From positions 1-37,663 of the IMG/VR virus record IMGVR_UViG_3300045988_100846: 37,663 nucleotides of DNA. One strand, written 5' to 3'. The notes beneath the pieces are model-generated. The model was not told the origin of the DNA. It ran no database searches and saw nothing but the letters and a program-made list of their open reading frames with translations. The DNA comes from a virus. The translations under genes were made by a program, and so were the position numbers. Positions 1-27,336 of the stretch are shown in pieces; within the stretch, counting starts at the first letter, position 1; the number at the start of each line of letters is the position of its first letter.

Positions 1-119
1 ATTATATTGTACAAGCTGCACGGATTAACGCTTACTCAAAATACGGGATTGAGTTTAAAGTTCCAAAATCAGAATCTTTCTTTGTCTCGCAGCTTGATAC
101 CCAAAAAGAAAAAAAAAAG
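1..119. repeat. Terminal direct repeat, exact copy of 37545..37663 (circular or circularly permuted genome assembly overlap)
   Basis: Base-by-base comparison of the first 119 nt with the last 119 nt shows identity. Both copies end in the same A10 run. Confidence 0.95.
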
Positions 120-1998: not shown

Positions 1999-3246
1999 AT
2001 GTCAACGTATCAATTTGACGACAAAACCCAGCTGTCAGCACATTTTAACGTGCAAGAGTTTAAGTGCCAGTGCGGTAAATCGCACGATATTTTAATAGAC
2101 AGCGGTCTAATAGACAAGTTAGAGCGGCTTTACACCGCCCTGAACTGTAGCAAAATCATTGTGACAAGCGGCTACCGCTGCCCAGAACACGATAAGGCTG
2201 TAGGCGGCACGAGCAGCGGTCAGCATACCAAAGGCACTGCTGCAGATGTCTGCTGTTACGGGCAGGACGGGCAGCCCATCAGCAGCAAGACGGTGTGTTG
2301 CAAGGCTCAAGATTTGGGTTTTGGCGGCATTGCTAACATCACGACATCTTACCAGTACACGCATCTGGACGTGCGGACAGGATACCGCTGGTTAGGCGAC
2401 GAGGTCAAAGGCAATGGTACTGTTACAAAGGATTTTTACAAGTATTTTGGCATCAAAAAGACAACCGAAACAACAAGCGTTTTAAAAGGGATTGATGTGT
2501 CATACTGTCAAAACGAGGTTGACTGGGACGCTGCAAAAGCATCCGGACTGGTTGACTTTGCGATTTTACGGGCAGGCTATGGCAGGGAAACATCTCAGGT
2601 AGACACGCAATTTGAACGAAACTATGCAGCTTGTAAGCGTCTGGGCATCCCCTGCGGTGCGTACTGGTTTAGCTATGCGATGTCGGCAGACGAGGCAAAA
2701 CGTGAGGCTCAGGTATTTTTGCAGACCATTAAAGGTAAATCGTTTGAGTATCCGGTTTATATGGATTTGGAACTTGAAAAACAATTTGCATTAGGCAAAG
2801 CTGCTTGCTCTGCAATAGTAGATGCATTTTTGAACACGTTAGAACAGGCTGGATATTTTGCCGGTCTGTATTGCAGCACGTACTACTTAGATAATTACTT
2901 GTCAGATAGCATTAAAAGCCGTTATACGGTCTGGTGTGCCCAGTACGCAAGTAAATGTACCTATCAAAATCCATACGGCATTTGGCAGTATAACGTAGCT
3001 GGTAACGCAGAGTATGACATTATTGGGCAAAAAAGTATCCCTGGTATTATTGGCGAGTGTGATATGGATTACTGTTATACCGATTACCCAGCAATTATTA
3101 AAGCTGCTGGACTAAATGGCTTCACGAAAACAACGCAACCGAACGAACCAGAACCAGAGCCAACACCAACACCTGAACCAGATAGCGAGGAATCCACATT
3201 GCAGCAGATTTTAAAGCATGTTGCGTCATTGGATGCAAAATTGTAA
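1999..3246 (+). CDS. Endolysin with two catalytic domains: N-terminal peptidase M15-like and C-terminal GH25 muramidase, with a PEPEPEPTPTPEP tail
   Basis: ATG 1999 has AAGGAG 10 nt upstream; the track start 1957 is a GTG with no ribosome binding site. SGYRCPEHDKAVGGTSSGQHTKGTAADV...YTHLDV matches the zinc D-Ala-D-Ala peptidase M15 pattern. GIDVSYCQNEVDWDAAKASGLVDFAILRAGYG...GAYWFSY matches GH25 lysozyme. Confidence 0.88.
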   Translation: MSTYQFDDKTQLSAHFNVQEFKCQCGKSHDILIDSGLIDKLERLYTALNCSKIIVTSGYRCPEHDKAVGGTSSGQHTKGTAADVCCYGQDGQPISSKTVCCKAQDLGFGGIANITTSYQYTHLDVRTGYRWLGDEVKGNGTVTKDFYKYFGIKKTTETTSVLKGIDVSYCQNEVDWDAAKASGLVDFAILRAGYGRETSQVDTQFERNYAACKRLGIPCGAYWFSYAMSADEAKREAQVFLQTIKGKSFEYPVYMDLELEKQFALGKAACSAIVDAFLNTLEQAGYFAGLYCSTYYLDNYLSDSIKSRYTVWCAQYASKCTYQNPYGIWQYNVAGNAEYDIIGQKSIPGIIGECDMDYCYTDYPAIIKAAGLNGFTKTTQPNEPEPEPTPTPEPDSEESTLQQILKHVASLDAKL

Positions 3247-3284
3247 TTTTTTTGTTTTTTTGTGCACATCAATCAATCAATCAT

Positions 3285-3327
3285 CTTGATTATAACTTGA
3301 TTATAACTTGATTATATACTTGATTAC
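3285..3327. repeat. Four tandem 11-12 bp repeats (cttgattataa) in the origin region
   Basis: Read directly. They are preceded by an AT-rich T-tract (3245..3262) and (atca)n at 3269..3283. Confidence 0.85.
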
Positions 3328-3369
3328 GGGGTGTAAAAAAGTCCGGATTTTCGGGGCGGTTTGATGTTT

Positions 3370-3470
3370 AGGGACATACTCTTTTCCGTAAAGGGACGTA
3401 TCCTTTTCCGTGAAGGGACATACTCTTTTCCGTAAAGGGACATACTTTTTTCCATAAAGGGACGTATTGC
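3370..3470. repeat. Iterons: four complete 22-bp direct repeats plus a partial fifth (plasmid-type oriV)
   Basis: agggacatactcttttccgtaa at 3370 and 3414 (identical). Variants at 3392 and 3436, and a partial copy at 3458 that runs into the -35 of the rep promoter. Confidence 0.9.
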
Positions 3471-3472
3471 TA

Positions 3473-3501
3473 TTGACAAAGCCACGTCTTTATGTTAAAA
3501 T
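3473..3501 (+). promoter_or_regulatory. rep promoter (TTGACA-N17-TAAAAT with TG extension)
   Basis: TTGACA at 3473..3478 and tgtTAAAAT at 3493..3501. It abuts the last iteron, as expected for autoregulated rep genes. Confidence 0.75.
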
Positions 3502-3519
3502 AAGCATGAGGTGATAATC

Positions 3520-4578
3520 ATGCCAAAAAGGACAACACTACCACAAATTTATGGCAATTGCAATTTTTTAGTACAAAAGTCAAACCCTCTCCAGTCGCTA
3601 TCAGAGACCAAAATGACGCTTGCAGAGTTTAAAATACTGGATGCGTACTTGTCAAAAATCAATAGTCACAACCCAGAGGAGCGGTGTGTGACGTTTGATA
3701 AGGGTGAGTTGGAGTCGCTGCTGGGCGTTACGCAAATAAAAAACAAGGATTTATCTGACCGGATTGACAATCTTTTTAAGGTTGTTACTATCCAAGACCC
3801 TGACAAACCAAACAAATTTACTAAAATAGCCCTTTTTTCGTGTGCTGAGTGTACGCAGGGGGACGATGGGCTTTGGACAATCAAACTTGCATGCTCGCCA
3901 GAGGCGATGCAATACATTTTTAACATTGAGAGTATCGGCTATTTGAGATACCGTCTAAAAAATGTAGTCAATTTGACATCAAGATACAGTTATATTTTGT
4001 ATTTGTATCTGGAGAGCAACCGCTTTCGGGGGTCGTGGACAATACCACTTGACGACCTTAAAAAAATGCTTTGCTGCACAGCGGACACGTATAGCGAGTA
4101 CAAGCGTTTTAGTACAATGGTGCTTAAAAAATGTCAAAAAGAGTTATCCCAAAAAACCGACATTGATTTTGATTATGTAGCCCTGCGACGTGGTCGCAAA
4201 GTAACAAGCATACAGTTTATACTCAAAACGCCCCAGAACGCCACTGACAGCCCCGTAGAGCCGCTTTTTGAAGAGCGTGATGAATTTGATTGGACAATCA
4301 CTTATGGCTCAGAGAGGCTTGCTACGCTTGCTGAGGGGTGCAATTATGAGTTTAACAAAGCTGAGATGGAGCAAATCGCCCGTGTGCTTGTCCGGATAAA
4401 CATCCCGTGCGACCGGGCAACAAAAAGCGAGTTGTATGGTAAGCAGTTTTATCTCCGTGAAAAATACGCCGTTCTTAATGTTGCAGCGGAAAACAAGCCT
4501 ATAAAAAACAGATTTGTTTATTTTCTGAAAATGCTTGAAAACGATACGTACCAGCCTGCAGCATACAACGTAATATAA
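3520..4578 (+). CDS. Plasmid-type replication initiator (Rep_3 / RepB-like)
   Basis: ATG 3520 has GAGGTG 6 nt upstream. The N-terminus FLVQKSNPLQSLSETKMTLAEFKILDAYLSKIN resembles the Rep_3 initiator signature. Iterons lie immediately upstream. Confidence 0.75.
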   Translation: MPKRTTLPQIYGNCNFLVQKSNPLQSLSETKMTLAEFKILDAYLSKINSHNPEERCVTFDKGELESLLGVTQIKNKDLSDRIDNLFKVVTIQDPDKPNKFTKIALFSCAECTQGDDGLWTIKLACSPEAMQYIFNIESIGYLRYRLKNVVNLTSRYSYILYLYLESNRFRGSWTIPLDDLKKMLCCTADTYSEYKRFSTMVLKKCQKELSQKTDIDFDYVALRRGRKVTSIQFILKTPQNATDSPVEPLFEERDEFDWTITYGSERLATLAEGCNYEFNKAEMEQIARVLVRINIPCDRATKSELYGKQFYLREKYAVLNVAAENKPIKNRFVYFLKMLENDTYQPAAYNVI

Positions 4579-4622
4579 AAACCGCCTCTCAGAGATTTTT
4601 ATCTCCGAGGGGCGGTTTTTTG
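4579..4622. terminator. Strong bidirectional intrinsic terminator after rep
   Basis: Stem accgcctctc/gaggggcggt (one G-U pair) extended by gagat/atctc. It is flanked by an A-run upstream and T6 downstream. Confidence 0.85.
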
Positions 4623-4632: not shown

Positions 4633-4662
4633 TTGACAAAAGCAGTCTGTTTGTGGTATAAT
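4633..4662 (+). promoter_or_regulatory. Consensus sigma-A promoter (TTGACA-N18-TGgTATAAT) with no ORF downstream
   Basis: TTGACA at 4633..4638 and tggTATAAT at 4654..4662. Confidence 0.75.
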
Positions 4663-4668
4663 ATTATT

Positions 4669-4738
4669 GTTGTAAATAATTCAATTCCCTTCGTTCTTTT
4701 TTCTTTCACCGTCTGCCTCTGGCAGGCGGTCTTTTTTT
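4669..4738 (+). ncRNA. Candidate small RNA of about 70 nt (promoter-to-terminator unit)
   Basis: No ATG-initiated ORF between the promoter and a 10-bp-stem terminator (4708..4730) followed by T7 (4732..4738). The T-tract overlaps the stop codon of the convergent gene 4737..5195. Confidence 0.55.
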
Positions 4739-5472: not shown

Positions 5473-5919
5473 TTATGCTCCGCCTTTTGACATAGCCATC
5501 TTTTCTATTTCGTCCTCAATTGTTCCGAGGGCGGTCGATACGGACAATTTACTGCCCTGCGTGCCGTCCGGCTGTTCGTTTTGTCGCCGCTTTGCTGCAT
5601 CACCAAGCTGGACTAAAACATCCATCAAACAAGCACGGATGTTCGGCGGCAGGCTCATGTACTTGTCAATGACATCATCTTCTGATTCCTTGTTGAGATT
5701 CCGTTCTGCAAACGGGTCAGGTGCTGGTTCTCTGCCGAGTAAGTAGTCCGTTGTTACGCCGTAAAAGTCAGCGAGTTTTTGCAACGTATCTGTGCTTACG
5801 TCTCGTTGCCCATACTCATATGTGATATAGGCACGTTCCGTGACCCCGATTGCATCCGCTACTTGTTTTTTTGTAAGCTTTTTTGATTCTCTTAAAAACT
5901 TCATTGTATCTTTAAGCAT
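5473..5919 (-). CDS. cI-type repressor (XRE-family helix-turn-helix), 148 aa
   Basis: ATG 5919 has GGAAGGAGGTGA upstream. LTKKQVADAIGVTERAYITYEYGQRDVSTDTLQKLADFYGVTTDYLLG is a classic HTH_3 motif. It is divergent from the early operon. Confidence 0.9.
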   Translation of the reverse strand: MLKDTMKFLRESKKLTKKQVADAIGVTERAYITYEYGQRDVSTDTLQKLADFYGVTTDYLLGREPAPDPFAERNLNKESEDDVIDKYMSLPPNIRACLMDVLVQLGDAAKRRQNEQPDGTQGSKLSVSTALGTIEDEIEKMAMSKGGA

Positions 5920-5948
5920 TTTATGGTCACCTCCTTCCCACAATCTAT

Positions 5949-5977
5949 ATTATACACAAAATGCGTCTATATGTCAA
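5949..5977 (-). promoter_or_regulatory. Repressor promoter (TTGACA-N17-TATAAT)
   Basis: Reverse complement of 5972..5977 is TTGACA and of 5949..5954 is TATAAT. Confidence 0.8.
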
Positions 5978-6068
5978 TAGGCAATAAGCAAAAAAATCGC
6001 AAATTGTGCGTTTTGCATAATTGATATAAGCACTTTTTGTGCAAATCGTAGAAAGCGTTTGTTTTCTA

Positions 6069-6097
6069 TTGACAAAAGCACAAAATGAGCTTATAAT
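6069..6097 (+). promoter_or_regulatory. Early rightward promoter (TTGACA-N17-TATAAT)
   Basis: TTGACA at 6069..6074 and TATAAT at 6092..6097. A cacaaaatg motif lies in the spacer and again at 6112..6120. Confidence 0.8.
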
Positions 6098-8293: not shown

Positions 8294-8350
8294 CGAGGGG
8301 ATAAAAACATAACCATTATATAATATAACACAAAAAAGGAGTGTTTGTCA

Positions 8351-8896
8351 ATGAGTAAATTATACGAGATTTCCGGCGATTTTGCCGTACTGTTTGACCA
8401 GCTGGACGACCTGACGGAGCAGGCAGAAGCTGCAGGAGCGTCCGCAGAAGACGCAGAAGCAGCGTGGTTTGACACGCTGGACGCTCTGGAAACAGAGTTT
8501 AACGACAAGGCCGAGAATGTTGCCTTGTACATCAAGGACTTACTTGCAAGAGCAGATGCAATGCACACAGAAGAGCGGCGATTGTCTGACCGCCGGAAAG
8601 CGTGTGAACATCGGGCTGCACACCTGAAAGACTATTTGCAGAACAGCATGACGCAAATGCGACTGAAAAAAGTCGATGGTGTGCGTGCTTGCATCTCCAT
8701 CCGCAACAATCCGCAGTCACTGCAGATTGCGGACGAGGCAGCACTTGTAAAGCAGCTGCAAGCGTCTGACCATGACGACCTGTTGCGGTACAAGCTGCCA
8801 GAGCTGCAAAAGACCAAAATCAAGGCATATTTGCAGGACGGCGGTCAGCTGGATGGATGCCAGCTGGTGCAGACGCAATCCTTGCAAATCCGATAA
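8351..8896 (+). CDS. Siphovirus Gp157-family protein
   Basis: ATG 8351 has AAGGAG 10 nt upstream. The MSKLYEISGDFAVLFDQLDD... N-terminus and its position before a Sak4-like ATPase are typical of Gp157. Confidence 0.75.
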   Translation: MSKLYEISGDFAVLFDQLDDLTEQAEAAGASAEDAEAAWFDTLDALETEFNDKAENVALYIKDLLARADAMHTEERRLSDRRKACEHRAAHLKDYLQNSMTQMRLKKVDGVRACISIRNNPQSLQIADEAALVKQLQASDHDDLLRYKLPELQKTKIKAYLQDGGQLDGCQLVQTQSLQIR

Positions 8897-8909
8897 AGGA
8901 GGTGATGAT

Positions 8910-9533
8910 ATGGGTATCCCTGTTTTAATCATTGGAGAATCCGGCAGCGGCAAGTCTACCAGCCTCCGAAACTTTGAGCCGGGCGAGATTGGTATTTTTA
9001 ATGTTGCAAGCAAGCCGCTCCCGTTTCGCAAAAAGCTGCCGTGTGCCAATGCGGCAGATTATCCGCTGATTGTCCGGACACTGGCACAGCACAACAAGAC
9101 AAAGTACGCGATTGACGACAGTCAGTACTTGCTTGCATTTGAGTTTTTTAACCATGCAAGCGAGAAGGGCTATGAAAAGTTTACCAACATGGCATTAAAT
9201 TTTTACAGCCTTATCCGGTTTATCCAGTTCAAAACGCCTGACAACTGCATTGTGTACTTTTTGCACCACACCGAAACCTCGTATGATGCCGCCGGAAATC
9301 GGCGGCTGAAAGCGAAAACCATTGGAAAAATGCTGGATGAAAAGTTGACGGTTGAGGGCCTATTTTCCATTGTTCTGCTGTGCCAGGCAGATGCGGCAGG
9401 GCGGCACTACTTTCAGACGCAGAGCAACGGCAACAGCACGGCAAAATCTCCTATGGAGCTGTTCCCGGAGGAGATTGACAACGACCTAAAAGCCGTGGAC
9501 AAGGCTATCCGAGAGTACTATCAGCTGGAGTAA
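8910..9533 (+). CDS. Sak4-like / AAA_24 RecA-fold ATPase
   Basis: ATG 8910 has AAAGGAGGTGA upstream. Walker A motif VLIIGESGSGKST near the N-terminus. Confidence 0.8.
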   Translation: MGIPVLIIGESGSGKSTSLRNFEPGEIGIFNVASKPLPFRKKLPCANAADYPLIVRTLAQHNKTKYAIDDSQYLLAFEFFNHASEKGYEKFTNMALNFYSLIRFIQFKTPDNCIVYFLHHTETSYDAAGNRRLKAKTIGKMLDEKLTVEGLFSIVLLCQADAAGRHYFQTQSNGNSTAKSPMELFPEEIDNDLKAVDKAIREYYQLE

Positions 9534-9587
9534 ATCGGCTGTATGTATCATAACTAAATCAAATAAAATATTATGGAGGTATTTATT

Positions 9588-10256
9588 ATGGCAATGTTAG
9601 CAGGTATTCAGGGTGCAAGTGGTGTGCAGGAAACCACGTTTGGCAACAAGTTCGGCAAGCTTCCGGCGGGCGGTTACGTCTGCAAAATCCTTAATGTTAA
9701 GGTGGACAAGACCAGCGGCGGCAGCTTATACATCAAGCTGCAAATTGACGTGTCTGAGGGCGAGTATGCCGGACACTTCCAGCGGCGGTATTTGGACGAC
9801 GCCGGCAGTCAGTACGGGCAAAAGTGGAAGGGCATCTATAAAATCTTCCTTCCGGTCATGACGAGTGATAATGACAAGTACATGCATGATATTGCGATTT
9901 ACAAGGGGCAAATCAACACCATCGCACGGGCAAATGGCAAACCAGAGCCAAACATTGAGGTAGGATATGACCCAGACATTTTTAAAGGTTGTACCGTGGG
10001 TGTGCTGTTCCGTGAGGCAGAGTATAACGGCAATCACTTTACCGAGGCTGCATTTCTCTGCGACCCTGCAAAGATTCGCACGGGTGATTTTGAGATTCCA
10101 GAGCCGAGAAAGCCCAAGCAGACTGGAAATAACGGCTTTACATCCGGTGGCATCTTTGCCGCAGCAGCACAGCAACAGCAGCCAGCAGCTGTTCCAAACA
10201 TCGGCGACCTGAGCGACTTTGAGGAGATTCTACCAACGGGAGAGGTTCCGTTCTAA
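9588..10256 (+). CDS. DUF669-type protein (ssDNA-binding-like partner of Sak4)
   Basis: ATG 9588 has GGAGGT upstream. The Gp157 / AAA_24 / DUF669 gene order is a recurrent phage recombination module. The acidic C-terminal tail DFEEILPTGEVPF is SSB-like. Confidence 0.6.
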   Translation: MAMLAGIQGASGVQETTFGNKFGKLPAGGYVCKILNVKVDKTSGGSLYIKLQIDVSEGEYAGHFQRRYLDDAGSQYGQKWKGIYKIFLPVMTSDNDKYMHDIAIYKGQINTIARANGKPEPNIEVGYDPDIFKGCTVGVLFREAEYNGNHFTEAAFLCDPAKIRTGDFEIPEPRKPKQTGNNGFTSGGIFAAAAQQQQPAAVPNIGDLSDFEEILPTGEVPF

Positions 10257-10271
10257 TGAGGTGATAAGCGG

Positions 10272-10784
10272 ATGGCAACCAAAAAATCATTCGTTCTGTT
10301 CACCGACCGCAAAAAAGAGGTTGACATGCTATCCGATGCACAGTGTGGTGTCCTATTCAAGGCGATTCTCCGGTATGCAGATGCCGGAGAGCGTTTAGAA
10401 TCTGAAGACTTGGTGGTGCAGGTGCTGTTTAGTGTCTTTGCATCTCAGATTGATAGCTGCAACGAGAAGTGGGAAGTAATCAAGAAAAAGCGTTCAGAAG
10501 CTGGTAAAAAAGGCATGAAAAGCAGATGGGGCACAAAGCCAAAGCAAGAGATAACAAATGATAACAATGTTATCGGTGTTATAACAAGTGATAACAAGTC
10601 AAAACAAACGATAACAAAAATAACTGTTACTGATACTGCTACTGCTACTGTTACTGGTACTGTTACAGTACCAGTAACAAATAAGCCGCCGGACGGCACT
10701 GCCCCCAACGGGGCAGCACCACCGGCTAAACAAGAAGTGGGCGATGTTGTGCCGTGGGATGAGGTCGATTTTGATTTAGTATAA
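10272..10784 (+). CDS. Hypothetical protein (DUF6291-like N-terminus) containing a DNA repeat cluster
   Basis: GAGGTGA ribosome binding site. The N-terminus FVLFTDRKKEVDMLSDAQCGVLFKAILRYADAGE is followed by a low-complexity T/V/N-rich middle encoded by the repeats. Confidence 0.75.
   Translation: MATKKSFVLFTDRKKEVDMLSDAQCGVLFKAILRYADAGERLESEDLVVQVLFSVFASQIDSCNEKWEVIKKKRSEAGKKGMKSRWGTKPKQEITNDNNVIGVITSDNKSKQTITKITVTDTATATVTGTVTVPVTNKPPDGTAPNGAAPPAKQEVGDVVPWDEVDFDLV
10550..10680. repeat. GATAACAA box cluster plus palindromes (candidate lytic replication origin inside a gene)
   Basis: gataacaa at 10550, 10560, 10590 and 10610, with a variant at 10580. Palindrome gataaca-a-tgttatc at 10560..10574. 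Perfect 15-bp-arm palindrome at 10649..10679. Confidence 0.6.
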
Positions 10785-10799
10785 GAGGGAGTGAGAACG

Positions 10800-12611
10800 A
10801 TGCGGTATCAATTACAACAATCTGACCTGCTTGCCTTTGCCGAGCGGCAAGGCATCGAAACCAGAGTACACGGCAAAGAATTACAGTTTAAAGAGTGCCC
10901 TTATTGCCATTCCAGCCGGAATGACCAATGGTCATTCAGCATCAGCATGGAATCTGGTGCTTATCGCTGCCCACGGGCGTCCTGCGGTCGTCAGGGGCAT
11001 TTTGTAGAGCTGGCAAGGGACTTTGACTTTCAACTGCAAGCGGACGACACAGGGGCATTTAAGAGCCTGCCACAGGTGCGGTTGATTACGAGCACACCTG
11101 CGGAAAAATACTTATCCCGCCGGGGCATCAAAAAAGAGGTTACGCAGGCTTACGGCATCACAACCACCAAGGACGACCCCAACCAGCTGATTTTCCCGTT
11201 TTACCGTCCGGTCACAGACACGAGCGGCAACCGCTACAATAAACTGGAGTTTGTCAAATATCGCCTGATTGACTACGACAAGGCAAAACACAAGTCCAAA
11301 GAGTGGTGCGAGAGTGGATGCAGACCAATTTTATTCGGGATGGATCACTGCGACCCGACCAAAAACAAAACACTGGTGATTACAGAGGGGCAGATTGACA
11401 GCTTATCCCTTGCAAGTGCAGGGATTCCCAACGCTGTCAGCGTGCCGACTGGAGCAAGAGGGTTTACCTGGGTTGAGCACTGCAGGGACTTTGTGGAGCA
11501 GTTTGACACCATCGTGGTATTTGGTGACCACGAGCGGGGCGGAATCACGCTTGTAAAAGAGATTCGGGAGTTATTTCCAAAATGCAAGGTGCGTTCCGTC
11601 CGTCCGGGAGATTATCTGCTTGAAAAAGACGCAAACGACATCCTGCAGGCTTATGGAGAGCAAGCGTTACACCATGCGGTTGAGCAAGCAGAGGTATTCC
11701 AACCACCGACCATCAAGGACATGGCAAATGTGCAGGGAATCGCTCTCAACGATGTGCCGCACTTTAAAACCATGCTGCCAAAGCTTGACCAGACCATTGG
11801 CGGATTTTACGAGGGACAGCTGATTGCCCTGACTGGCAAATGCGGCACGGGAAAGAGCACACTTGCCAGTATGTTTGCAGTCGCTGCCCTCTGGCAGGAC
11901 TGGAACGTGCTGGTTTATTCTGGCGAGTTGGCAGATTACGAGGTCAAACGCTGGATGGATTTTCAGATTGCCGGCGAAAAGGCAATCAAAGAACGTGTTT
12001 ATACCGATTCTGCCGGGTTTTACCTCGACACGGAGCAGGAGCAACAGCTTGCGGACTGGTATCGCCACCGCCTGTTTATCATGGACAATCTTGCACTGGC
12101 AGAGAAAGACAACATGGACATCGTTTCAGAAATCGAAGCGGCTGTCAGAGTGTATGACGTGCGGTTTGTGCTGGTGGATAACCTCATGACGGCAATTGCC
12201 GAGGGGACGGACATGTACATAGAGCAGAGCAAATTTGTAAAAAAACTAAAACTGCTGGCAAGCAAGCTGCAAATTGTCATTTTACTGGTTGCCCACCCCA
12301 AAAAAACCAAATCTAAGGAGTTAGACGTTGACGAGATATCTGGCTCTGGCAACATCGGCAACCTGTCAGATACCGTTATCATGTTGGATAGAGATACCAC
12401 CACCAAAGACGACGGCGAAAAAATTACACGGACGCTGCTTGCGGTGAAAAAAAACCGTGCAACGGGTATTTTATTGCAAGAGGACGACCGCATCCAGCTG
12501 CGACATAGCCGTAAATCCAAGCGATTGTATCAGGTTGGAGATAAAGGTATTTGTCAATTCCCGTTTAATCTGGATACGGCTAAAAAAGAGGTTACAAAAC
12601 TACCGTTTTAA
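10800..12611 (+). CDS. Bifunctional primase-helicase (zinc finger, Toprim, DnaB-like helicase; T7 gp4-like architecture)
   Basis: ATG 10800 has GAGGGAG upstream. Motifs CPYCHS...CPRASCG, Toprim-like LVITEGQIDSLSL / VVFGDHE, Walker A LTGKCGTGKST and Walker B FVLVDNL. Confidence 0.88.
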   Translation: MRYQLQQSDLLAFAERQGIETRVHGKELQFKECPYCHSSRNDQWSFSISMESGAYRCPRASCGRQGHFVELARDFDFQLQADDTGAFKSLPQVRLITSTPAEKYLSRRGIKKEVTQAYGITTTKDDPNQLIFPFYRPVTDTSGNRYNKLEFVKYRLIDYDKAKHKSKEWCESGCRPILFGMDHCDPTKNKTLVITEGQIDSLSLASAGIPNAVSVPTGARGFTWVEHCRDFVEQFDTIVVFGDHERGGITLVKEIRELFPKCKVRSVRPGDYLLEKDANDILQAYGEQALHHAVEQAEVFQPPTIKDMANVQGIALNDVPHFKTMLPKLDQTIGGFYEGQLIALTGKCGTGKSTLASMFAVAALWQDWNVLVYSGELADYEVKRWMDFQIAGEKAIKERVYTDSAGFYLDTEQEQQLADWYRHRLFIMDNLALAEKDNMDIVSEIEAAVRVYDVRFVLVDNLMTAIAEGTDMYIEQSKFVKKLKLLASKLQIVILLVAHPKKTKSKELDVDEISGSGNIGNLSDTVIMLDRDTTTKDDGEKITRTLLAVKKNRATGILLQEDDRIQLRHSRKSKRLYQVGDKGICQFPFNLDTAKKEVTKLPF

Positions 12612-12623
12612 GGAGGCGATTGC

Positions 12624-13004
12624 GTGACACTGGAGGATTTAGATAAGATGGCGTACGAGTTGCAGCCGCTGCCAGAGGGGTTGCAACTGCCGGAAACTTA
12701 TTACTTTTTGACGATGCGGACGCTATACACCTTGTATGCGTTCCGGAAATTGTCTGCAGAGCAAGCAAAACAGGAAAAAAAGCAGGTTTTGCATCAGTAT
12801 CGGGATTTTGAGTTGCTTCAAAAAATCGGAATGCAGGAGCGGCAGATACTGGACAACATCCGCAAAAGTGGAGCGTATTACAGTAAAAATGGCTGTCCGA
12901 CCTGCAAGCAGCTTGCAAATCAGCTGTGTGGGCTGGCAATCAGAGAGGAGGGGCACCAATGGGAGAGCTGCGACCCTATCAAACCGACCTTGTCAACCGA
13001 TTGA
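12624..13004 (+). CDS. Hypothetical protein, 126 aa
   Basis: GTG 12624 has AAGGAGG 7 nt upstream. No family recognised. Confidence 0.65.
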   Translation: MTLEDLDKMAYELQPLPEGLQLPETYYFLTMRTLYTLYAFRKLSAEQAKQEKKQVLHQYRDFELLQKIGMQERQILDNIRKSGAYYSKNGCPTCKQLANQLCGLAIREEGHQWESCDPIKPTLSTD

Positions 13005-14347
13005 GCCAATCATGGCGAGCCGGACACAAAGCCCCGTGCATCGTGCTGCCGTGTGGCGGTGGTAAATCGGTGATTGTGGCAGAGATTGCGAAACGTACCA
13101 CGGAAAACGGCGGAAATGTGCTGTTTTTGGTGCATCGAAAAGAGTTGTGCGACCAAATCCGCAACACCTTCCGGTGGTGGGGCGTGGAGATGGATTTGTG
13201 CAACGTCATGATGGTGCAGACGGCGTCCAGACGGGTGCAAAAGCTCACCTATCCGACGCTGATTATCACCGATGAAAACCACCACAGCAAAGCGGCAACC
13301 TATCGCAAAATATATGACGCATTTCCGGCAGCGTATCGGGTGGGCGTGACAGCAACGCCAATCCGGCTGGATGGGTCTGGTCTGGGTGATGTCAACGATG
13401 ATTTGATTGTCGGAGTGACAGCAAAATGGCTGATTCAAAATAATTGTCTTGCACCGTATGACTACTACGCACCAAAAATACTGGATACGGCGGACTTGCA
13501 CACAAAGCGTGGCGAGTACGACATGGCAGAGGCAGAGCAGATGATGATGTCCAACAAATATATTTTTGGGGACGTCATCGCACACTATCAGACCTATGCA
13601 AAAGGGAAAAAAGCCGTCTGCTATTGCGTATCCATCCGATACTCACAGATGATGGCAAAGATGTTTTGCGATGTTGGTATCCCAGCACAGCACCTGGATG
13701 CAAAAACTCCAAAACAAGAGAGAGATGCAATCATTGCGGACTTTCGGAGCGGCAAAATCCAGATTCTTTGCAACGTGGATTTGATTTCGGAGGGGTTCGA
13801 TGTGCCGGATTGCGGCTGTGCAATCCTACTCCGTCCGACACAATCCCTAACGCTCTACATCCAGCAGTCAATGCGATGCATGCGGTATCAGCCAGACAAA
13901 CGAGCAGTGATTCTCGACCATGTCGGCAATGTCAAACGGTTTGGTATGCCCGATGCAGATAGAGAGTGGTCGCTGGATGGACGCAAAAAAGACGATAAAG
14001 AATTTCAAATTGAAACCTGTGCGTACTGTTATTATAGCTTTCCCAAACGTGACAAAAACGGCAAGTTGGTCAAAAACTGCCCAAATTGTGGCGAGCCAAT
14101 CCGGGCGGAAGAAGAGCGACCGCCAGCAGAGCCAACGGAGCCAACGGAGCAAGAAGTACATACGGAAATCAAACTGGAAAAAGTCACAGATGTGCCCGTT
14201 ATCCCAGCAATGCCGTCGCAGTGCAAGACGTTTGCAGACCTTGCAACATACGGCAAGGCAAAGGGATACAAGCCCGGATGGGCGTATTATATGGCAAAAC
14301 GGATGGGCTTGCCAGTTGGGAGGATAAAGCATGACGCAGGAGCATAA
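12959..14347 (+). CDS. Superfamily-2 DEAD/DEAH-box helicase with C-terminal zinc ribbon
   Basis: ATG 12959 has GAGGAGGGG upstream. Motifs LRPYQ, PCGGGKS (motif I), ITDENHH (motif II), GVTATP and a C-terminal CAYC...CPNCG. Confidence 0.88.
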   Translation: MGELRPYQTDLVNRLSQSWRAGHKAPCIVLPCGGGKSVIVAEIAKRTTENGGNVLFLVHRKELCDQIRNTFRWWGVEMDLCNVMMVQTASRRVQKLTYPTLIITDENHHSKAATYRKIYDAFPAAYRVGVTATPIRLDGSGLGDVNDDLIVGVTAKWLIQNNCLAPYDYYAPKILDTADLHTKRGEYDMAEAEQMMMSNKYIFGDVIAHYQTYAKGKKAVCYCVSIRYSQMMAKMFCDVGIPAQHLDAKTPKQERDAIIADFRSGKIQILCNVDLISEGFDVPDCGCAILLRPTQSLTLYIQQSMRCMRYQPDKRAVILDHVGNVKRFGMPDADREWSLDGRKKDDKEFQIETCAYCYYSFPKRDKNGKLVKNCPNCGEPIRAEEERPPAEPTEPTEQEVHTEIKLEKVTDVPVIPAMPSQCKTFADLATYGKAKGYKPGWAYYMAKRMGLPVGRIKHDAGA

Positions 14348-14669
14348 CATCCAAAATCAGATTCGGGCTGCCGTGTCAGAGTATTGCGTGATTTTTCGTG
14401 TCAACGTGTGCAGTGGCCGCACGTTGGACGGAAGATGGATTACGTCAGGTGTTCCGGCAGGGTTTTCCGACTTGTTTGGTGTCCGCAAATCGGACGGCAA
14501 AGCAGTCTTTATTGAGGTAAAAACGCCAAAAGGCAGAGCATCCAAAGCACAGTTGCATTTTATAGAGATGATGCAAAAAAACGGTGCAATCGCTGGAATT
14601 TGCAGGAGTGCGGAGGATGCAACGCGGTTGGTGACAGAAGGGGAGCGGGAAAATGAAGCACAATCTTAA
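14331..14669 (+). CDS. VRR-NUC domain nuclease
   Basis: GFSDLFGVRKSDGKAVFIEVKTPKGRASKAQLHFIEMMQKNGAIAGICRS matches the VRR-NUC D...E-V-K core. It follows an SF2 helicase, as in many phages. Confidence 0.85.
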   Translation: MTQEHNIQNQIRAAVSEYCVIFRVNVCSGRTLDGRWITSGVPAGFSDLFGVRKSDGKAVFIEVKTPKGRASKAQLHFIEMMQKNGAIAGICRSAEDATRLVTEGERENEAQS

Positions 14670-19125: not shown

Positions 19126-19491
19126 ATGGCGAATGAGAAGAACTTAATTCCGATGAATGAACGTACAGAGGAAGAACAAAGAGAAATTGCAAGGAAAGGC
19201 GGCATTGCGTCAGGAGCGTCCAGACGGGCGTATAGAAGCTTGAAACAAGCCGCGAAGGCATTTTTTAAGGAAAACGATGACGCTGCTATGCGGATGATTC
19301 AAGCCCTTTACGAAGAGGCTGAAAAAGGCAATGTGAAAGCAATTGACAAGTTGCAAGACCTCATTGGTGAAACCGTACAGCGAGAAGAACTTGCCCTCAA
19401 GAAAAAACAGTTTGCCCAGCAGAACGGACAAAAAAGCGTTGCAGAACTGCCACAACTCTTGCAGGCGTTGCAGGAGGATGATGCAGAGTGA
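19126..19491 (+). CDS. Probable terminase small subunit, 121 aa
   Basis: ATG 19126 has GGAGTGGAGGAA upstream. It is basic and helical (REIARKGGIASGASRR) and overlaps the terL start. The call rests mainly on position. Confidence 0.55.
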   Translation: MANEKNLIPMNERTEEEQREIARKGGIASGASRRAYRSLKQAAKAFFKENDDAAMRMIQALYEEAEKGNVKAIDKLQDLIGETVQREELALKKKQFAQQNGQKSVAELPQLLQALQEDDAE

Positions 19492-20741
19492 CGTTTACAA
19501 AGCTATCCAAAAAGCAAAAAACAGTCTTTCGATGGGCATACAAGCCGGATGTGTACGCCTTAATTTGTGACGGCTCTGTGCGGTCTGGCAAGACGGCATC
19601 CATGGCATGTGCGTTTATCCTGTGGGCAATGGCAACATTTGACCGTGCCAGATTTGGCATCTGCGGCAACACGGTACAATCTGCAGAGCGTAACATCATC
19701 ATGGAGCTGTTGCAGATGGCAGACATCACGCACTATTTTAACGTGTCATATATCGGCGGCAGTAAGCACATCTTAACCGTCAAAGGCAACGGCAAGCAAA
19801 ACCAATTTCACGTTTTTGGCGGCAAGGATGAGGCGTCTTATAAGCTTGTGCAAGGCATCACGCTGAGTGGTGTTCTTTTCGACGAGGTTGCCTTAATGCC
19901 GGAATCGTTTGTCAATCAGGCGATCGCTCGTACACTGTCCGTTGGAGATGCAAGACTGTGGTTTAACTGCAATCCAGACAATCCGCAGCACTGGTTTTAT
20001 CAGCAATGGATTTTAAAGGCGGACAGCGGTGAGCGTAACGATGTTTTACATCTGCATTTCACGATGCAGGATAACCCCATCATGACACCACAAAAAATCC
20101 AGCGTGCAGCGTCTGTATACCCTGCTGGAGCGTTTTATGACCGATATGTATTGGGCTTGTGGCGAGTGGCAGAGGGGCTTGTCTATCCGGATTTTGACCC
20201 AGCTGTTAGCGTTGTCCATAATTACAAGCCGTCCGAGAGGGCGGTTTTTTACTTATCCATTGACTATGGTACGCTTAACCCTACATCTATTGGATTGTGG
20301 GCGGTCGAGGATGATTTTGCAGTACGCATAAAAGAGTCATATTATGATGCACGCAAAGAGGACAAGCAAAAGGATGACGAGCAGCATTATCAGGAGATTG
20401 CAAGGCTTGCAGAGGGCTACGACATCCAGCAGATTGTAGTAGACCCGTCTGCCGCAAGTCTGATTGCCTGCATCCAGCACCACGCTGTCTACAGCGTCCG
20501 CAAAGCAAATAACAGCGTAATTGATGGTATCCGGTACACGATGACCTTGTTAAAACAAAAGCGGATTCTGATTGCAGATACTTGCACGGACGCTATCCGG
20601 GAGTTTGGCTTGTATCGGTGGGACGATAAAAAGCAGCAAGATACCGTCATTAAAGAAAACGACCATGCGATGGACGACATCCGGTATTTTTGCTATACCA
20701 TTCTGCGACATTTTGGATGGCGAACAGATGATTGGGGGTGA
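19488..20741 (+). CDS. terL: Terminase large subunit
   Basis: Walker A CDGSVRSGKT, Walker B-like VLFDEV and a C-terminal nuclease region with DHAMDDIRY. Confidence 0.92.
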   Translation: MTFTKLSKKQKTVFRWAYKPDVYALICDGSVRSGKTASMACAFILWAMATFDRARFGICGNTVQSAERNIIMELLQMADITHYFNVSYIGGSKHILTVKGNGKQNQFHVFGGKDEASYKLVQGITLSGVLFDEVALMPESFVNQAIARTLSVGDARLWFNCNPDNPQHWFYQQWILKADSGERNDVLHLHFTMQDNPIMTPQKIQRAASVYPAGAFYDRYVLGLWRVAEGLVYPDFDPAVSVVHNYKPSERAVFYLSIDYGTLNPTSIGLWAVEDDFAVRIKESYYDARKEDKQKDDEQHYQEIARLAEGYDIQQIVVDPSAASLIACIQHHAVYSVRKANNSVIDGIRYTMTLLKQKRILIADTCTDAIREFGLYRWDDKKQQDTVIKENDHAMDDIRYFCYTILRHFGWRTDDWG

Positions 20742-20745
20742 TTTT

Positions 20746-22098
20746 ATGATTAGTTACGCAGATATTGAGGCCGCACTTAATATCAAAACAGCAATATCCC
20801 CACTAATGAGGGGATACATTGAGCAGTGGGAAACGCTGTTTTCCGGCAATTCTGAAAACCGTGAGCAAAAAGACGGCTTACATCTTGCAGCAGCAATCTG
20901 CACCGAGTTTGCACGGTTGATTTTTGCAGAGTCAAAAATAGAGATTACCGGCAACAGCAAGACGGCGGGCTATTTGCAAGCCATGATAGACAACCACCTG
21001 TCAGCATTGCAAACCGGCTTTTCAGCAGGGCTTGCCAGCGGTGGCATGGTAATAAAGCCATATTTTGCAAACGGCGGTGTATCGTTGGAGTGGGTGCCAG
21101 TGCAGCGTGTGTTTCCGATTGCATTTACATCTGATCAGTCTATGCAATCCGCCGTGTTTGCGGATACGTTTCGGAGCGGTGCGGACTGGTACACAAGGCT
21201 AGAGTGTCACGGCTATGACAGCGACAAAAAGCAGTGCATCATTCAAAATTACACGTATCATGCATACGATGCAGACGCGTTGGGCAGCCCCTGCGAGTTA
21301 TCAGAAACACCGTGGGCTGGATTAGAGCCGCTAGTCAACGTGCAGTCAGAAACGCCGCTGTTCGGTTTTTTCCGTGTGCCAAAGCCCAACAGCAAAGACC
21401 CGACCTCTGCTTTGGGCGTGTCCGTGTTTGCGGATGCACTGCCGCAGATTGTTCAGGCGGATCAATTATGGTCGGAAATTTTGTGGGAATACGAATCAAA
21501 AGAAACCGCAGTCTTTGCGACACAGGACATTTTCAACAGATTTGACCGGCTTTCCGCACATGATAAGCGGTTATACAAAAAGATGCTGTCCATCGGGGAT
21601 GATGATTCTGACAAAATCATGCCGTATTCGCCGGAGATTCGGGATGCATCATTTTTTAACGGCTTAAATAAGATTTTGCAGCGAATTGAATTTTCTTGTC
21701 AACTTGCCTATGGCACGCTGTCAGAGCCTGCAGAGGTCGCAAAAACAGCAACCGAGATTGAGTCGTCCAAGCAACGCAGCTATGTATTTGTGTCTGCCCT
21801 GCAAAAACAGACGGAAAACGCTCTGCGGCGAGCAATTACAGCAGCTGCAACACTGGCGTTTTATCATGGTGTTATCCCGTCAACAGAGTTTGAGATTGCT
21901 TTTGATTGGGGTGACAGTGTGCTGGAGGACGTAAATGCAAAGACGCAGCGAGAGTTGCAGTTTGTACAAGCGGGCATCTTAAAACCGGAAATTTTTCTGA
22001 GCAGCTATTACGGCTGCTCGGAAGAAGAAGCAAAAAAGATGATTCCGGAGGCTGGCAGCCCTGAGGATTACAGCCTGTTTGGCGTAGGTGACCGCTGA
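20746..22098 (+). CDS. Portal protein
   Basis: ATG 20746 has GGGGGTGA upstream. It is 450 aa, lies directly after terL, and its sequence is SPP1 gp6-like in style. Confidence 0.85.
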   Translation: MISYADIEAALNIKTAISPLMRGYIEQWETLFSGNSENREQKDGLHLAAAICTEFARLIFAESKIEITGNSKTAGYLQAMIDNHLSALQTGFSAGLASGGMVIKPYFANGGVSLEWVPVQRVFPIAFTSDQSMQSAVFADTFRSGADWYTRLECHGYDSDKKQCIIQNYTYHAYDADALGSPCELSETPWAGLEPLVNVQSETPLFGFFRVPKPNSKDPTSALGVSVFADALPQIVQADQLWSEILWEYESKETAVFATQDIFNRFDRLSAHDKRLYKKMLSIGDDDSDKIMPYSPEIRDASFFNGLNKILQRIEFSCQLAYGTLSEPAEVAKTATEIESSKQRSYVFVSALQKQTENALRRAITAAATLAFYHGVIPSTEFEIAFDWGDSVLEDVNAKTQRELQFVQAGILKPEIFLSSYYGCSEEEAKKMIPEAGSPEDYSLFGVGDR

Positions 22099-23351
22099 TG
22101 CTGCCGCCAATTTACTATGAGACATGCACGGACGCTGTACTTGCAGTATACGCACGCTTGGAAGACGCGATTTTGTCAGCGATGGTGAAACGCATCCTGC
22201 GAATGGGCTTTGTATCCGAGGCAACCAAACATCAAGCAGAGATGTTACAAGAGGCGGGCTTACTGTACGAGGACATCTTGCAGCTGATTGCACAACGCAC
22301 AGACGCATGCACGGCACAGGTTCGGGCGTTATTTGAGGATGCAGGAGCGACAGCCGTAGAGATTGACGATCAGGCTTACAGACAAGCCGGAATTGCAACG
22401 GTTGACATCCGGCAGTCTGACAGCCTGCGGCAGGTGTTGGAGGCTGGTTTTAAAAAGACCATGGGCGTGATGGACAACCTAACAAAGACAACGGCATTGA
22501 CCACGCAGCGTACGTTTTATCAGGCTTGTAATGACGCATATATGCAAATTACAAGCGGAGCGTTTAGCTATCAAGAGGCAATCCGTAACACGATAAAACA
22601 AGCTGCAAAGGGCGGCTTGTCAGTCACATATCCATCCGGACACGTTGACAAGTTGGACGTTGCTATCCGCCGTGCAGCGTTGACGGGTGTCGGGCAGACA
22701 GCTGCAGAGGTCAGCAAGACCAACGCAGAGGACAATGGCTGCTATTTGATGGAGATTACAGCCCACAGCGGTGCAAGACCAGAGCATGCAAAGTGGCAAG
22801 GGCAGCTGGTCAGCCTGACCGGGAAAGACGTTGGAAAGATCATAGACGGCTTGAAAGTCTGGTCGCTGCGTGGTATTGGCTATGGTGACGGCGATGGTTT
22901 CCGCGGATGGAATTGCCGTCACGATTGGTTTCCGTATTTTTCGGGGCTATCTACGCCAAACTATACCAAAAAAGAATTGGAACAGCTGGACGAAAAGCGG
23001 ATTGCATGGAACGGTGAGAAATACACTGAATACGAAATCAGCCAGATGCAGCGCGCTGGAGAGCGAAAGATTCGGGAACTGAAACGGCAGACAATGAGCA
23101 TGCAGCAAGCTGCAAAACTGACAGACAATCCAGAACTGAAAGAAGCTGCCACGGCAGATTATCAGGCAACCGCCGCAAAGCTGAAAGCAGCCGAAAAAGA
23201 TTTGCAAGCATTTTGCAATCAGACCGGACAAGACCGTGACAGGTTTAGAGAGCAAGTGCTGGGATTTGGCCGGAGCGAGGCACAAAAGGCGGTACATGCA
23301 GCAAAAAGAGTGCAAAAAGAGAGCAAAAAGAGTGTAAAAGCGTCTCAGTGA
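22098..23351 (+). CDS. MuF / SPP1 gp7-like minor head protein
   Basis: GWNCRHDWFPY motif of the Phage_Mu_F domain, located after the portal gene. The C-terminal roughly 100 aa form a coiled coil. Confidence 0.85.
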   Translation: MLPPIYYETCTDAVLAVYARLEDAILSAMVKRILRMGFVSEATKHQAEMLQEAGLLYEDILQLIAQRTDACTAQVRALFEDAGATAVEIDDQAYRQAGIATVDIRQSDSLRQVLEAGFKKTMGVMDNLTKTTALTTQRTFYQACNDAYMQITSGAFSYQEAIRNTIKQAAKGGLSVTYPSGHVDKLDVAIRRAALTGVGQTAAEVSKTNAEDNGCYLMEITAHSGARPEHAKWQGQLVSLTGKDVGKIIDGLKVWSLRGIGYGDGDGFRGWNCRHDWFPYFSGLSTPNYTKKELEQLDEKRIAWNGEKYTEYEISQMQRAGERKIRELKRQTMSMQQAAKLTDNPELKEAATADYQATAAKLKAAEKDLQAFCNQTGQDRDRFREQVLGFGRSEAQKAVHAAKRVQKESKKSVKASQ

Positions 23352-23383
23352 GGTGCTTTTACATGCTTTGAGGAGGAATTACA

Positions 23384-23647
23384 ATGGAAGGAACAAAAAA
23401 TAGTTTGACGTTTGGCGAGGCTTTAGAAGAGATGAAAGCTGGAAAGAAAGTTGCAAGAAAAGGGTGGAACGGAAAAGGAATGTATCTTTACCTCGCAGAT
23501 GGAAAGCTTTTAACGGAAGAAATCGGGGATGGAAGCTATCCGTTTACTGATACTGTTGTTATGAAAACGGCAGATAATAAGTATTGTATTGGTTGGCTTG
23601 CAAGTCAGACCGATATGCTGGCAGATGACTGGCACATTGTAGAGTAA
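23384..23647 (+). CDS. DUF2829-family protein (the family that includes the anti-Thoeris protein Tad2)
   Basis: LTFGEALEEMKAGKKVARKGWNGKGMYLYL ... GWLASQTDMLADDWHIVE matches the DUF2829 N- and C-terminal signatures. Confidence 0.7.
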   Translation: MEGTKNSLTFGEALEEMKAGKKVARKGWNGKGMYLYLADGKLLTEEIGDGSYPFTDTVVMKTADNKYCIGWLASQTDMLADDWHIVE

Positions 23648-23739
23648 TCACCGCCCCGACCATGGGCAAAAACTGGCGGAGGGACGGAAACCAAGAACAA
23701 ACAAGCCTGTGGGTACGGCGTTCTTTTTATCAACAAATC

Positions 23740-23766
23740 AGCATCGGGAAATCGGTGCTTTTTTGA
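23740..23766 (+). terminator. Weak terminator-like hairpin after the DUF2829 gene
   Basis: 7-bp stem agcatcg / cggtgct (one G-U pair) followed by a T-run. Confidence 0.35.
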
Positions 23767-23793
23767 TACCCAAAACAGAAAGGAGTTGCGAAA

Positions 23794-24312: not shown

Positions 24313-24331
24313 TGAAAGGATGATATAATAA

Positions 24332-25204: not shown

Positions 25205-25217
25205 GGGAGTGGATGAA

Positions 25218-25301
25218 ATGAAGACCATCGGCATGAAACCACAGAAAAAGCAAAAACCAAAGCCGGGGAAAAAGCCGGAAACGGAGCGAGAAAAGGCATG
25301 A
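25218..25301 (+). CDS. Possible very small lysine-rich protein, 27 aa
   Basis: GAGGGAGTGG ribosome binding site and ATGA coupling to the next gene. Translation: MKTIGMKPQKKQKPKPGKKPETEREKA. Confidence 0.3.
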   Translation: MKTIGMKPQKKQKPKPGKKPETEREKA

Positions 25302-27322: not shown

Positions 27323-27336
27323 AAGGAGCGTAACCG

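Follow-up and report, generated by a model that had tools for sequence, protein, structure and literature searches.

In phage P1, an iteron-binding initiator keeps the temperate phage as a circular plasmid, and lytic replication is separate. P1 also encodes the ParAB partition system, the Phd/Doc toxin-antitoxin pair and Cre for the resolution of dimers (PMC7969092). Of all sequenced phages and plasmids, some 5-7% are phage-plasmids; these are typically without an integrase, are frequent in Bacillus and Clostridia, and the model members are expected to encode partition systems (PMC7969092). In the gut, more than 6% of viral operational taxonomic units (vOTUs) cluster with phage-plasmids, and the Clostridium perfringens phages phiSM101 and vB_CpeS-CP51, together with gut vOTUs that cluster with them, have been described as putative Clostridia phage-plasmids on genomic grounds (10.1101/2025.02.07.636470). 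Authors in the field have cautioned that replication genes suggest, and do not prove, a phage-plasmid lifestyle (10.1101/2025.02.07.636470). Because phage-plasmids are without integrases, lifestyle predictors routinely call them virulent. This report concerns the IMG/VR virus record IMGVR_UViG_3300045988_100846, positions 1 to 37,663 (this whole stretch is called the window), and in particular its cassette at 3247-4622, which carries an iteron origin and rep, a gene for a Rep_3-family initiator. An earlier note, made from the letters of the DNA, had described a theta-plasmid replicon at this place and a prophage maintained as an episome. The window is read here as a phage-plasmid, of a kind already known in Firmicutes and in the gut, and this reading is well supported but unproven.

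Origins of the pCI305 type are composed of an AT-rich region, 3.5 iterons of 22 bp, an inverted repeat over the final half-iteron, another between -10 and RBS (ribosome-binding site), an extended -10 and the gene repB (PMC3138775). The cassette shares with these lactococcal theta replicons (RepB, Rep_3 family) the period of 22 bp and the order of the elements, and it has 4.5 iterons. The putative counterpart of the first inverted repeat (IRa) is imperfect in the window, where the inverted half-iteron matches the window's own iteron at 7 of 9 positions; the second (IRb) and the extended -10 correspond to an inverted repeat just downstream of the promoter and to a TG before the -10. The arrangement of the inverted half-iteron is also that of the operator bound by the RepE dimer. 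With Rep as the tblastn query, 152 Lactococcus plasmid records were matched, and protein identity to the pCI305-type replicons stayed below 60%. The window differs from these replicons in being phage-borne, in having CTTGATT as its upstream element and in an extra helical domain at the C-terminus of Rep (amino acids (aa) 258-344). Likened by description, the window resembles the putative Clostridia phage-plasmids, which are also Firmicutes tailed phages without an integrase and with plasmid replication genes. No literature was found that links Ruminococcus phages of this type to a phage-plasmid lifestyle. In its construction, the window reads as a gut Clostridia siphovirus with a small-plasmid Rep_3 cassette, P1-type in mechanism.

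The position of the cassette was compared with that of recombinase genes in related phages. Loci surrounding endolysin and repressor homologues were fetched from IMG/VR. The comparison took in 134 phage-type loci, some of them overlapping views of one contig. Rep was found on its own in 29 of these and an integrase on its own in 41, none had both, and the remainder were truncated. Where relatives are 82-91% identical to the window (nucleotide or protein) in fibre, holin and endolysin, a recombinase gene directly follows the endolysin gene and encodes either a large serine recombinase of 498 aa or a tyrosine integrase of 340-347 aa. DNA homology between the window and one of them (L071) ends at 3250, four bases past the endolysin stop. 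These integrative sister phages from IMG/VR (among them L071, L073, L077 and L089) also have the XRE repressor arrangement of the window, and they differ from it in carrying the 498-aa serine recombinase or a 340-aa tyrosine integrase instead of the Rep cassette. Beside the lysogeny module of the window itself there is no tyrosine or serine integrase. By these alignments, the Rep cassette occupies the integrase slot between endolysin and repressor.

Recombinase genes were searched for throughout the window. A Pfam scan (E <= 1e-3) covered all 185 open reading frames (ORFs) of at least 60 aa in six frames, including one that spans the circular junction. None of these ORFs matched a Phage_integrase, Resolvase, Recombinase or transposase family, nor was any ParA/ParB or toxin-antitoxin family recovered, and phmmer with eight recombinases of relatives as queries found nothing in the window. 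The negative result for recombinases has power because the same Pfam search finds them readily in related phages, where Resolvase, Recombinase and Zn_ribbon_recom (4e-28) and Phage_integrase (about 1e-12) were recovered. The earlier note had recognised neither a tyrosine or serine recombinase on either strand nor a ParA/ParB or toxin-antitoxin pair, and both absences were borne out by these searches. There are no tRNA genes in the window, hence no hint of a tRNA-type att site.

The assignment of Rep to the Rep_3 family, which the earlier note had proposed for 3520..4578, is solid at the level of sequence profiles, of the predicted fold and of context. Both winged-helix domains lie far above the Pfam cutoffs, the first as Rep3_N (PF01051; 3e-20, 73.5 bits against a cutoff of 22.4, aa 18-164) and the second as Rep3_C (PF21205; 2e-16, 60.3 bits against 21.1, aa 177-233). 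Sequence matches to pi (2nra) and RepE (1rep) in the PDB are weak but significant (about 1e-4, aa 149-246). An AlphaFold2 model of Rep (mean predicted local distance difference test score, pLDDT, 72.7) was matched by Foldseek to RepE54 entries with a probability of 1.0 and a target template modelling (TM) score of 0.61-0.69 over about 215 columns, and the fold is thus RepE54-like. The C-terminal helical domain is confidently predicted and conserved, and is without a structural match. Among seven phage copies of rep, the ratio of nonsynonymous to synonymous substitution (dN/dS) is 0.06-0.15 at a dS of 0.23-1.0. Because of these low ratios, the gene is judged to be under purifying selection and its function to be maintained.

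Every feature that had been listed for the cassette was found at or near its expected place by repeat, promoter, Pfam and fold scans (Table 1). At the upstream end, the AT-rich tract is kept in phage relatives and is followed by four copies of CTTGATT, which start at 3285, 3296, 3307 and 3319 and are four of just five plus-strand copies in 37.6 kb. Three to five copies of this motif precede the iterons in 22 of 38 distinct relatives, and the motif stays constant while the iterons diverge. These repeats are candidates for a DNA-unwinding element or for conserved factor-binding sites. Because the motif is wholly unchanged across lineages, it is suggested to be recognised by a conserved partner, which could be a host factor or part of Rep. 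The iteron unit of 22 bp (AGGGACATACTCTTTTCCGTAA) is present in 4.3 copies at 3370-3463 (Tandem Repeats Finder score 146), continued by a half unit to 3467. None of 100 shuffled sequences gave an iteron match, and no iteron copies were found elsewhere in the genome. Homologous arrays of 2.5-10 units with lineage-specific cores were present in 27 of the 38 relatives, and the iterons are probably the binding sites of Rep monomers. As a side observation, runs of N were seen inside the iteron array of several scaffolds (L168, L172 and L173), and the array is an assembly problem as well as a fast-changing locus.

The half iteron leads over five bases into the -35 of the rep promoter. The promoter itself had been described as a consensus promoter; its presence was confirmed, and at 11 of 12 positions it is near-consensus and not perfect. 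In its spacer (about 3483-3492) lies an inverted partial iteron, ACGTCTTT, a copy of the 5' half of the unit, which pairs with the last half iteron, and this inverted pair is a putative operator for autorepression of rep. Across 23 lineages, the inverted half-iteron matched the iteron of its own lineage at 7.43 of 9 positions and those of other lineages at 6.66 of 9, a difference reached in 0 of 2000 permutations in a test that leaves kinship uncontrolled. Downstream of the promoter, the RBS GAGGTGA suits a start at the ATG at 3520, and the frame as listed opens at the GTG at 3511.

The relatives of Rep are found for the most part on plasmids. A tblastn search with Rep matched 1369 plasmid records as against 5 phage records. 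The best matches were circular plasmids of 3.6-4.5 kb that belong to a plasmid set from uncultured bacteria; identity was 39-50%, and more than 92% of the protein was covered. A Ruminococcus albus megaplasmid came next. Most relatives at 50-62% identity in a large protein collection are on contigs of 1-10 kb, and some of these relatives are named plasmid replication proteins or assigned to Ruminococcus flavefaciens; a 54%-identical Rep is carried by a conjugative plasmid of about 40 kb with a type IV secretion system, a relaxase and ParA/ParB. A scan of 185,579 species genomes gave 41 relatives of Rep at 43-57% identity. Of these, 40 sit on contigs no longer than 20 kb, and most come from metagenome-assembled genomes (MAGs) of Ruminococcus, Oscillospiraceae or Acutalibacteraceae. 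Neither a close nor an integrated copy of Rep was found in these species genomes.

The origin is shared along with the protein. Family-wide, three to five CTTGATT are followed by a spacer and by 2.5-10 tandem 22-bp iterons that end at the -35 of the rep promoter, and this layout recurs in 4-kb plasmids and in a conjugative plasmid. Iteron cores are uniform inside each array and different between lineages, and iteron number can differ (2.5 or 3.5) with an identical Rep protein (L007-L009 and L011 versus L010 and L012). Outside the phage lineage, the closest Rep proteins (39-62% identity) are those of pRGF00037 (HG796793, 3.9 kb, MOBV), of pRGI00460 (HG796324) and of plasmid contigs from Ruminococcus and Oscillospiraceae MAGs. 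The pRGF00037-type plasmids resemble the window in origin design, with five CTTGATT, a spacer, five 22-bp iterons and a promoter. The iteron core of pRGF00037, AAGGACATAGACTTTTCC, is also the core of the phage relatives L001 and L007 and is unlike that of the window, GGGACATACTC. These gut plasmids differ from the window in their size (2-10 kb) and in consisting of rep with or without mob, without phage genes. Taken together, protein relationships and origin layout show the replicon to be of plasmid ancestry.

The window has a further replication system, a phage module that includes a primase-helicase. Inside its DUF6291 gene, which is replisome-organiser-like, the repeats at 10550-10666 are a candidate lytic origin. 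Six relatives (L008, L009 and L171-L174) keep the Rep cassette and have RecT, DUF3799, ERCC4 and SSB as their early module instead. In such relatives, Rep is 89-91% identical and the neighbouring and structural genes are alike, and the early module is wholly different. Because two unrelated early modules accompany the cassette, it is not tied to lytic replication. Its own promoter and terminator, and its place beside the leftward XRE repressor and the Zn-ribbon membrane protein, put it on the lysogeny side.

The size of the contigs that carry Rep was also considered. Of the Rep protein clusters with at least 83% identity, 25 had a longest contig of at least 20 kb. This longest contig measured 20-46 kb in 23 of the 25, many being 38.0-38.9 kb, and 51.3 and 64.7 kb in the other two. 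In a Ruminococcus sp. MAG at NCBI, the element is a contig of 38,127 bp. From the same data sources, a chromosomal gene of the likely host was recovered on contigs of 100-416 kb, and the Rep-bearing contigs, of which none exceeds 65 kb, gather near unit length. In the 51.3-kb contig (L171), a single unit of a related phage runs into host-like genes, which encode a GH9/CBM30/dockerin cellulase and a HAD hydrolase. This join is away from the lysogeny module, inside a segment of about 630 bp common to a host beta-helix gene and the phage fibre gene. This beta-helix gene (611 aa) is a resident chromosomal gene, with HAD as its neighbour at one end and pnp and rpsO at the other in phage-free contigs of up to 416 kb, and its last 630 bp or so are 77-94% identical to the fibre C-terminus of that phage subtype. 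L171 ends about one unit length after the switch, where the shared segment would recur. Such a join would result from either a chimeric assembly via the repeat or a single crossover of the RecA type. As proof of integration, L171 as it stands was rejected, since its join lies in a repeat shared with a resident host gene. The 64,754-bp contig (L009; ENA ERZ27294497 k141_138034) exceeds one unit by about 26 kb and has one end in the fibre/holin region; the assembly may have passed through two variants that occur together, or the contig may carry host DNA.

Several observations weigh against an episomal prophage. Contigs of unit length are equally expected from virion DNA or from lytically replicating DNA, and the L171 and L009 contigs go beyond one unit. 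The phage is taken to be temperate from an XRE helix-turn-helix (HTH) protein and from the geometry of divergent promoters. No partition, toxin-antitoxin or multimer resolution system was recognisable in the window, which is unusual for a plasmid of 37 kb: searches of Pfam, NCBIfam and PADLOC gave no match to a partition system of the ParA/ParB/ParM/TubZ type, and no dif- or cer-like Xer site was found with two consensus patterns at up to three mismatches. No DnaA boxes were found near the origin, and their genome-wide count is at chance level. Rep_3-like proteins are known among phage families as well (phrog_4402, 'replication initiation protein', 2e-28). The covariation of operator and iteron across lineages, finally, was measured without a control for the relatedness of the lineages.

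The phrog_4402 match bears on a role of the Rep_3/iteron cassette in vegetative replication, in an early theta phase or as the sole initiator, in a phage that is virulent or held in an unstable carrier state. One RepA is said to serve both replication modes in N15. Free phage DNA would fit the unit-length contigs equally, and the failure to find partition or toxin-antitoxin genes would be in line with such a role. Such a role is nevertheless considered unlikely. A full early replication module with a candidate origin of its own is already present, the cassette is constant across relatives whose early modules are unrelated, and the nearest Rep relatives replicate 4-kb plasmids. Moreover, the cassette lies outside the early operon, in the integrase slot and beside the repressor, with its own constitutive-type promoter and its own terminator, and the leftward XRE repressor and divergent switch speak for lysogeny. 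It has also to be asked whether the prophage could integrate without a site-specific recombinase of its own, by RecA-dependent homology, by host Xer or by an unrecognised recombinase, with Rep acting transiently. The join in L171 and the many genes of no known function would be in line with this. The join is equally explained, however, by a chimera via a 94-99% identical repeat, and the contig stops exactly one unit later at this repeat; the fibre of the window is without the shared segment. Only 2 of the 25 Rep clusters go beyond about 46 kb and none beyond 65 kb, as against 416 kb for the longest host contigs; a dif-like site was searched for and not found, and the 185,579 species genomes contained no close copy of Rep. 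Integration by such routes is regarded as improbable.

The cassette could also be a passenger without a role in the life cycle, either a cointegrated small plasmid or an assembly chimera. It is compact (1.4 kb), terminators flank it, and its plasmid origin is clear. Against this, the cassette keeps its position in 29 loci that come from many samples and assemblers, rep shows strong purifying selection at substantial divergence, iterons and operator are maintained and appear to co-evolve, and the cassette was never met together with an integrase. The passenger explanation is therefore held to be very improbable, and its variant of a plasmid-phage assembly chimera was ruled out by the identical junctions in the 29 independent loci. 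What is considered probable is that the cassette is a functional plasmid-type replicon used for episomal maintenance. The claim of the earlier note that the prophage is an episome and not integrated is supported by the missing recombinase, by the Rep assignment, by the integrase slot, by the linkage to lysogeny genes and by the plasmid relatives, and it is from these that we infer the episomal state. Each refuting condition of the earlier note that the sequence could address turned out in favour of this claim. The stability of such a prophage may come from an unrecognised function, or a moderate copy number may suffice, because the closest Rep relatives maintain 4-kb plasmids without partition genes.

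For an episomal prophage, the following mechanism is proposed, by analogy to RepE, pi and the pCI305-type replicons. Rep monomers would bind the 4.5 tandem iterons, and their binding would open the adjacent CTTGATT/AT-rich region. The host helicase and primosome would then be recruited, leading to theta replication. The final half-iteron and its inverted copy in the promoter spacer would together be the target of Rep dimers; because this pair brackets the -35, rep would repress itself. Pairing of iterons (handcuffing) would cap the copy number. With the early genes silenced by the XRE repressor, the prophage would persist as a plasmid, and upon induction the early module with its primase-helicase would drive lytic replication, probably from the origin in the DUF6291 gene. 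By this model, the window would resemble P1, with its iteron-type RepA/oriR and separate lytic replicon, in having a circular plasmid prophage and a distinct lytic system. P1 is an Enterobacteria myovirus and roughly 2.5 times larger than the window phage. No sequence relationship between the two was seen, and no counterparts of ParAB, Phd/Doc or Cre were found in the window.

A wider reading would have a widespread gut Ruminococcus phage lineage switch between chromosomal and plasmid prophage lifestyles by the exchange of one cassette in one slot, recombinase for Rep_3/iteron replicon, with the plasmid form stable without known partition, toxin-antitoxin or dimer resolution. This wider reading is offered as a tentative and rather doubtful one. 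Candidates for the source of stability under cassette exchange are conserved, independently promoted neighbours, namely a 339-aa protein (780-1799) and an orphan small-RNA unit (4633-4737). The lineage is recurrent in many gut metagenome assemblies, which gave no fewer than 69 Rep protein clusters of at least 83% identity. Because integrative and plasmid forms of otherwise similar phages are set apart by one slot, what each prophage strategy costs and gains becomes testable in a strictly anaerobic gut commensal. In addition, vectors are few for Ruminococcus and other Oscillospirales, and the 1.4-kb cassette is a candidate to supply the replicon of genetic tools for them. The current understanding of how such elements work is unchanged by this genome.

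Table 1. Features of the window and of the fibre segment shared with a host gene, with coordinates on the window unless a contig is named.
Feature	Position	Strand	Details
T-rich/AT-rich tract	3247-3283	+	(TTTTTTTG)x2, then (ATCA)x4
11-bp repeats	3285-3326	+	unit CTTGATTATAA, 3.7 copies; CTTGATT x4, spacing 11-12 bp
Iteron array	3370..3467	+	four full 22-bp units and a half unit (AGGGACGTAT)
rep promoter	3473..3501	+	-35 TTGACA at 3473, 17-nt spacer, TG-extended -10 TAAAAT ending at 3501; 11/12
Inverted repeat AGCATGA...TCATGC	3503..3524	+	spans RBS (GAGGTGA) and start codon; position of IRb in pCI305-type replicons
rep, Rep_3-family initiator, 352 aa	3520..4578	+	winged-helix domains WH1 (about aa 30-135) and WH2 (about aa 155-236); helical C-terminal domain aa 258-344
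rep intrinsic terminator	4577..4620	+	hairpin and U-run, -29.1 kcal/mol, z = -7.7
Orphan transcription unit	4633..4737	+	perfect extended promoter 4633-4662, C/U-rich unstructured RNA of about 40 nt, strong terminator 4708-4730
Zn-ribbon protein, 152 aa	4737..5195	-	transmembrane segments (DZR, DUF4064-like; Pfam); part of lysogeny-side module
XRE/HTH_3 repressor candidate	5473..5928	-	Pfam 5e-14; RstR-like subfamily 3.6e-13, under curated cutoff
Divergent switch	5949..6097		perfect 12/12 promoters: 5977-5949 (-) for the repressor, 6069-6097 (+) for early genes
Phage replication module	8345..14669	+	Sipho_Gp157, AAA_24, DUF6291, Toprim+DnaB_C primase-helicase, SNF2 helicase, VRR-NUC (Pfam)
DUF6291 gene	10272-10784	+	internal repeats 10550-10666: five direct and one inverted GATAACAA, then (ACTGNT)x7
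Virion and lysis genes	19488..37031	+	TerL, SPP1-type portal, minor capsid protein 2, scaffold, Gp15, tape measure, collagen-repeat fibre, holin (Pfam)
ORF of 255 aa across the circular junction	37028-37663, continuing 120-250	+	phrog_21498, 4e-88, function unknown
74-aa ORF	535-311	-	preceded by a structured leader
339-aa protein	780-1799	-	long coiled-coil; C-terminal domain of about 100 aa (phrog_25567), HTH-like by eye; own perfect promoter 1886-1858
Endolysin	1999..3246	+	Peptidase_M15_3 and Glyco_hydro_25 (Pfam); last late gene, left edge of the swapped slot
Shared fibre/beta-helix segment	L171 4381-5007; L180 11162-11788; L172 4237-4863		sequence identity 77-94%

On the lysogeny side, the earlier note had named a cI-type repressor and a divergent switch. 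The HTH domain and the two perfect divergent promoters stand; no Peptidase_S24 domain is present in the XRE repressor, so that 'cI-type' holds for the HTH only. The Zn-ribbon gene adjoins rep in L003, L007-L012 and L171-L175. Between the terminator of rep and the 3' end of this convergent gene lies the orphan transcription unit, a discrete insertion or deletion of 113 bp that is 95% conserved in L007-L012 and missing from L003, L171 and L175. No Rfam match was found for the unit, which is a candidate small RNA with at most a putative link to the replicon. Over all ribosome-binding sites, RNAduplex placed the holin first as a target of this RNA (-24.8 kcal/mol); 47 of 200 shuffles gave an equal result, and the candidate was dropped as not significant. 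In some relatives, a MethyltransfD12 gene was seen between endolysin and rep in place of the 255-aa ORF that crosses the circular junction.

To the left of the endolysin gene, the 339-aa protein is transcribed against the late genes and is limited to this phage lineage (36 homologues); some relatives carry just its C-terminal domain. NCBIfam and PADLOC gave no match for this protein, for the 74-aa protein or for the Zn-ribbon protein, neighbours among which the earlier note had supposed that stability functions may lie. Ahead of the 74-aa ORF, the minus strand of 565-742 holds a perfect promoter (742-715) and a structured leader of about 140 nt that closes with a terminator-like hairpin (592-571), with a fold z-score of -2.9, and this leader could be an attenuator or a small RNA.

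The window represents a complete, circularly closed or permuted genome with a length of 37,544 bp, because its first 119 bp (1..119) are identical to 37545-37663 as a terminal direct repeat and because the junction from its end to its start is read through by two independent IMG/VR contigs (L003 and L005). There is no host flank at either end. By Pfam on the six-frame ORFs, the gene set of a tailed phage is complete, with packaging, virion, lysis and lysogeny control, and the phage is most likely a temperate siphovirus-like phage of 37.5 kb. Since a megablast search with 1-25000 of the window gave zero matches in 50,697 phage records, the phage forms a lineage distinct from deposited phages. 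It probably infects a cellulolytic Ruminococcus of the gut or a different member of the Oscillospirales. The host genes on L171 point to a cellulosomal Ruminococcus, because the gene at the join sits in a cellulosomal Ruminococcus-like genome.

GC skew tracks the coding strand and is uninformative on the origin. Against Rfam, the entire window gave nothing above the gathering cutoffs, and a scan of 1-7000 at a relaxed E-value gave two weak matches at chance level. The ORF that crosses the circular junction has a DNPPF motif that recalls N6-adenine methyltransferases. At the C-terminus of the fibre (35867-36210, plus strand), five tandem repeats of 69 bp encode the protein repeat DLSDLGGKI...CPNITG. 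The segment that a sister subtype's fibre shares with the host beta-helix gene indicates an exchange between host and phage of a probable receptor-binding or surface domain. Because the fibre C-termini differ in this way, repeats in the window and a beta-helix in the sister subtype, the receptor-binding end seems to be modular. Two further proteins are counter-defence cargo: a Tad2-like (anti-Thoeris) protein at 23384-23647 (plus strand) amid the head genes, and a Lar-like restriction-alleviation protein at 16400-16609 (plus strand) amid the early genes.

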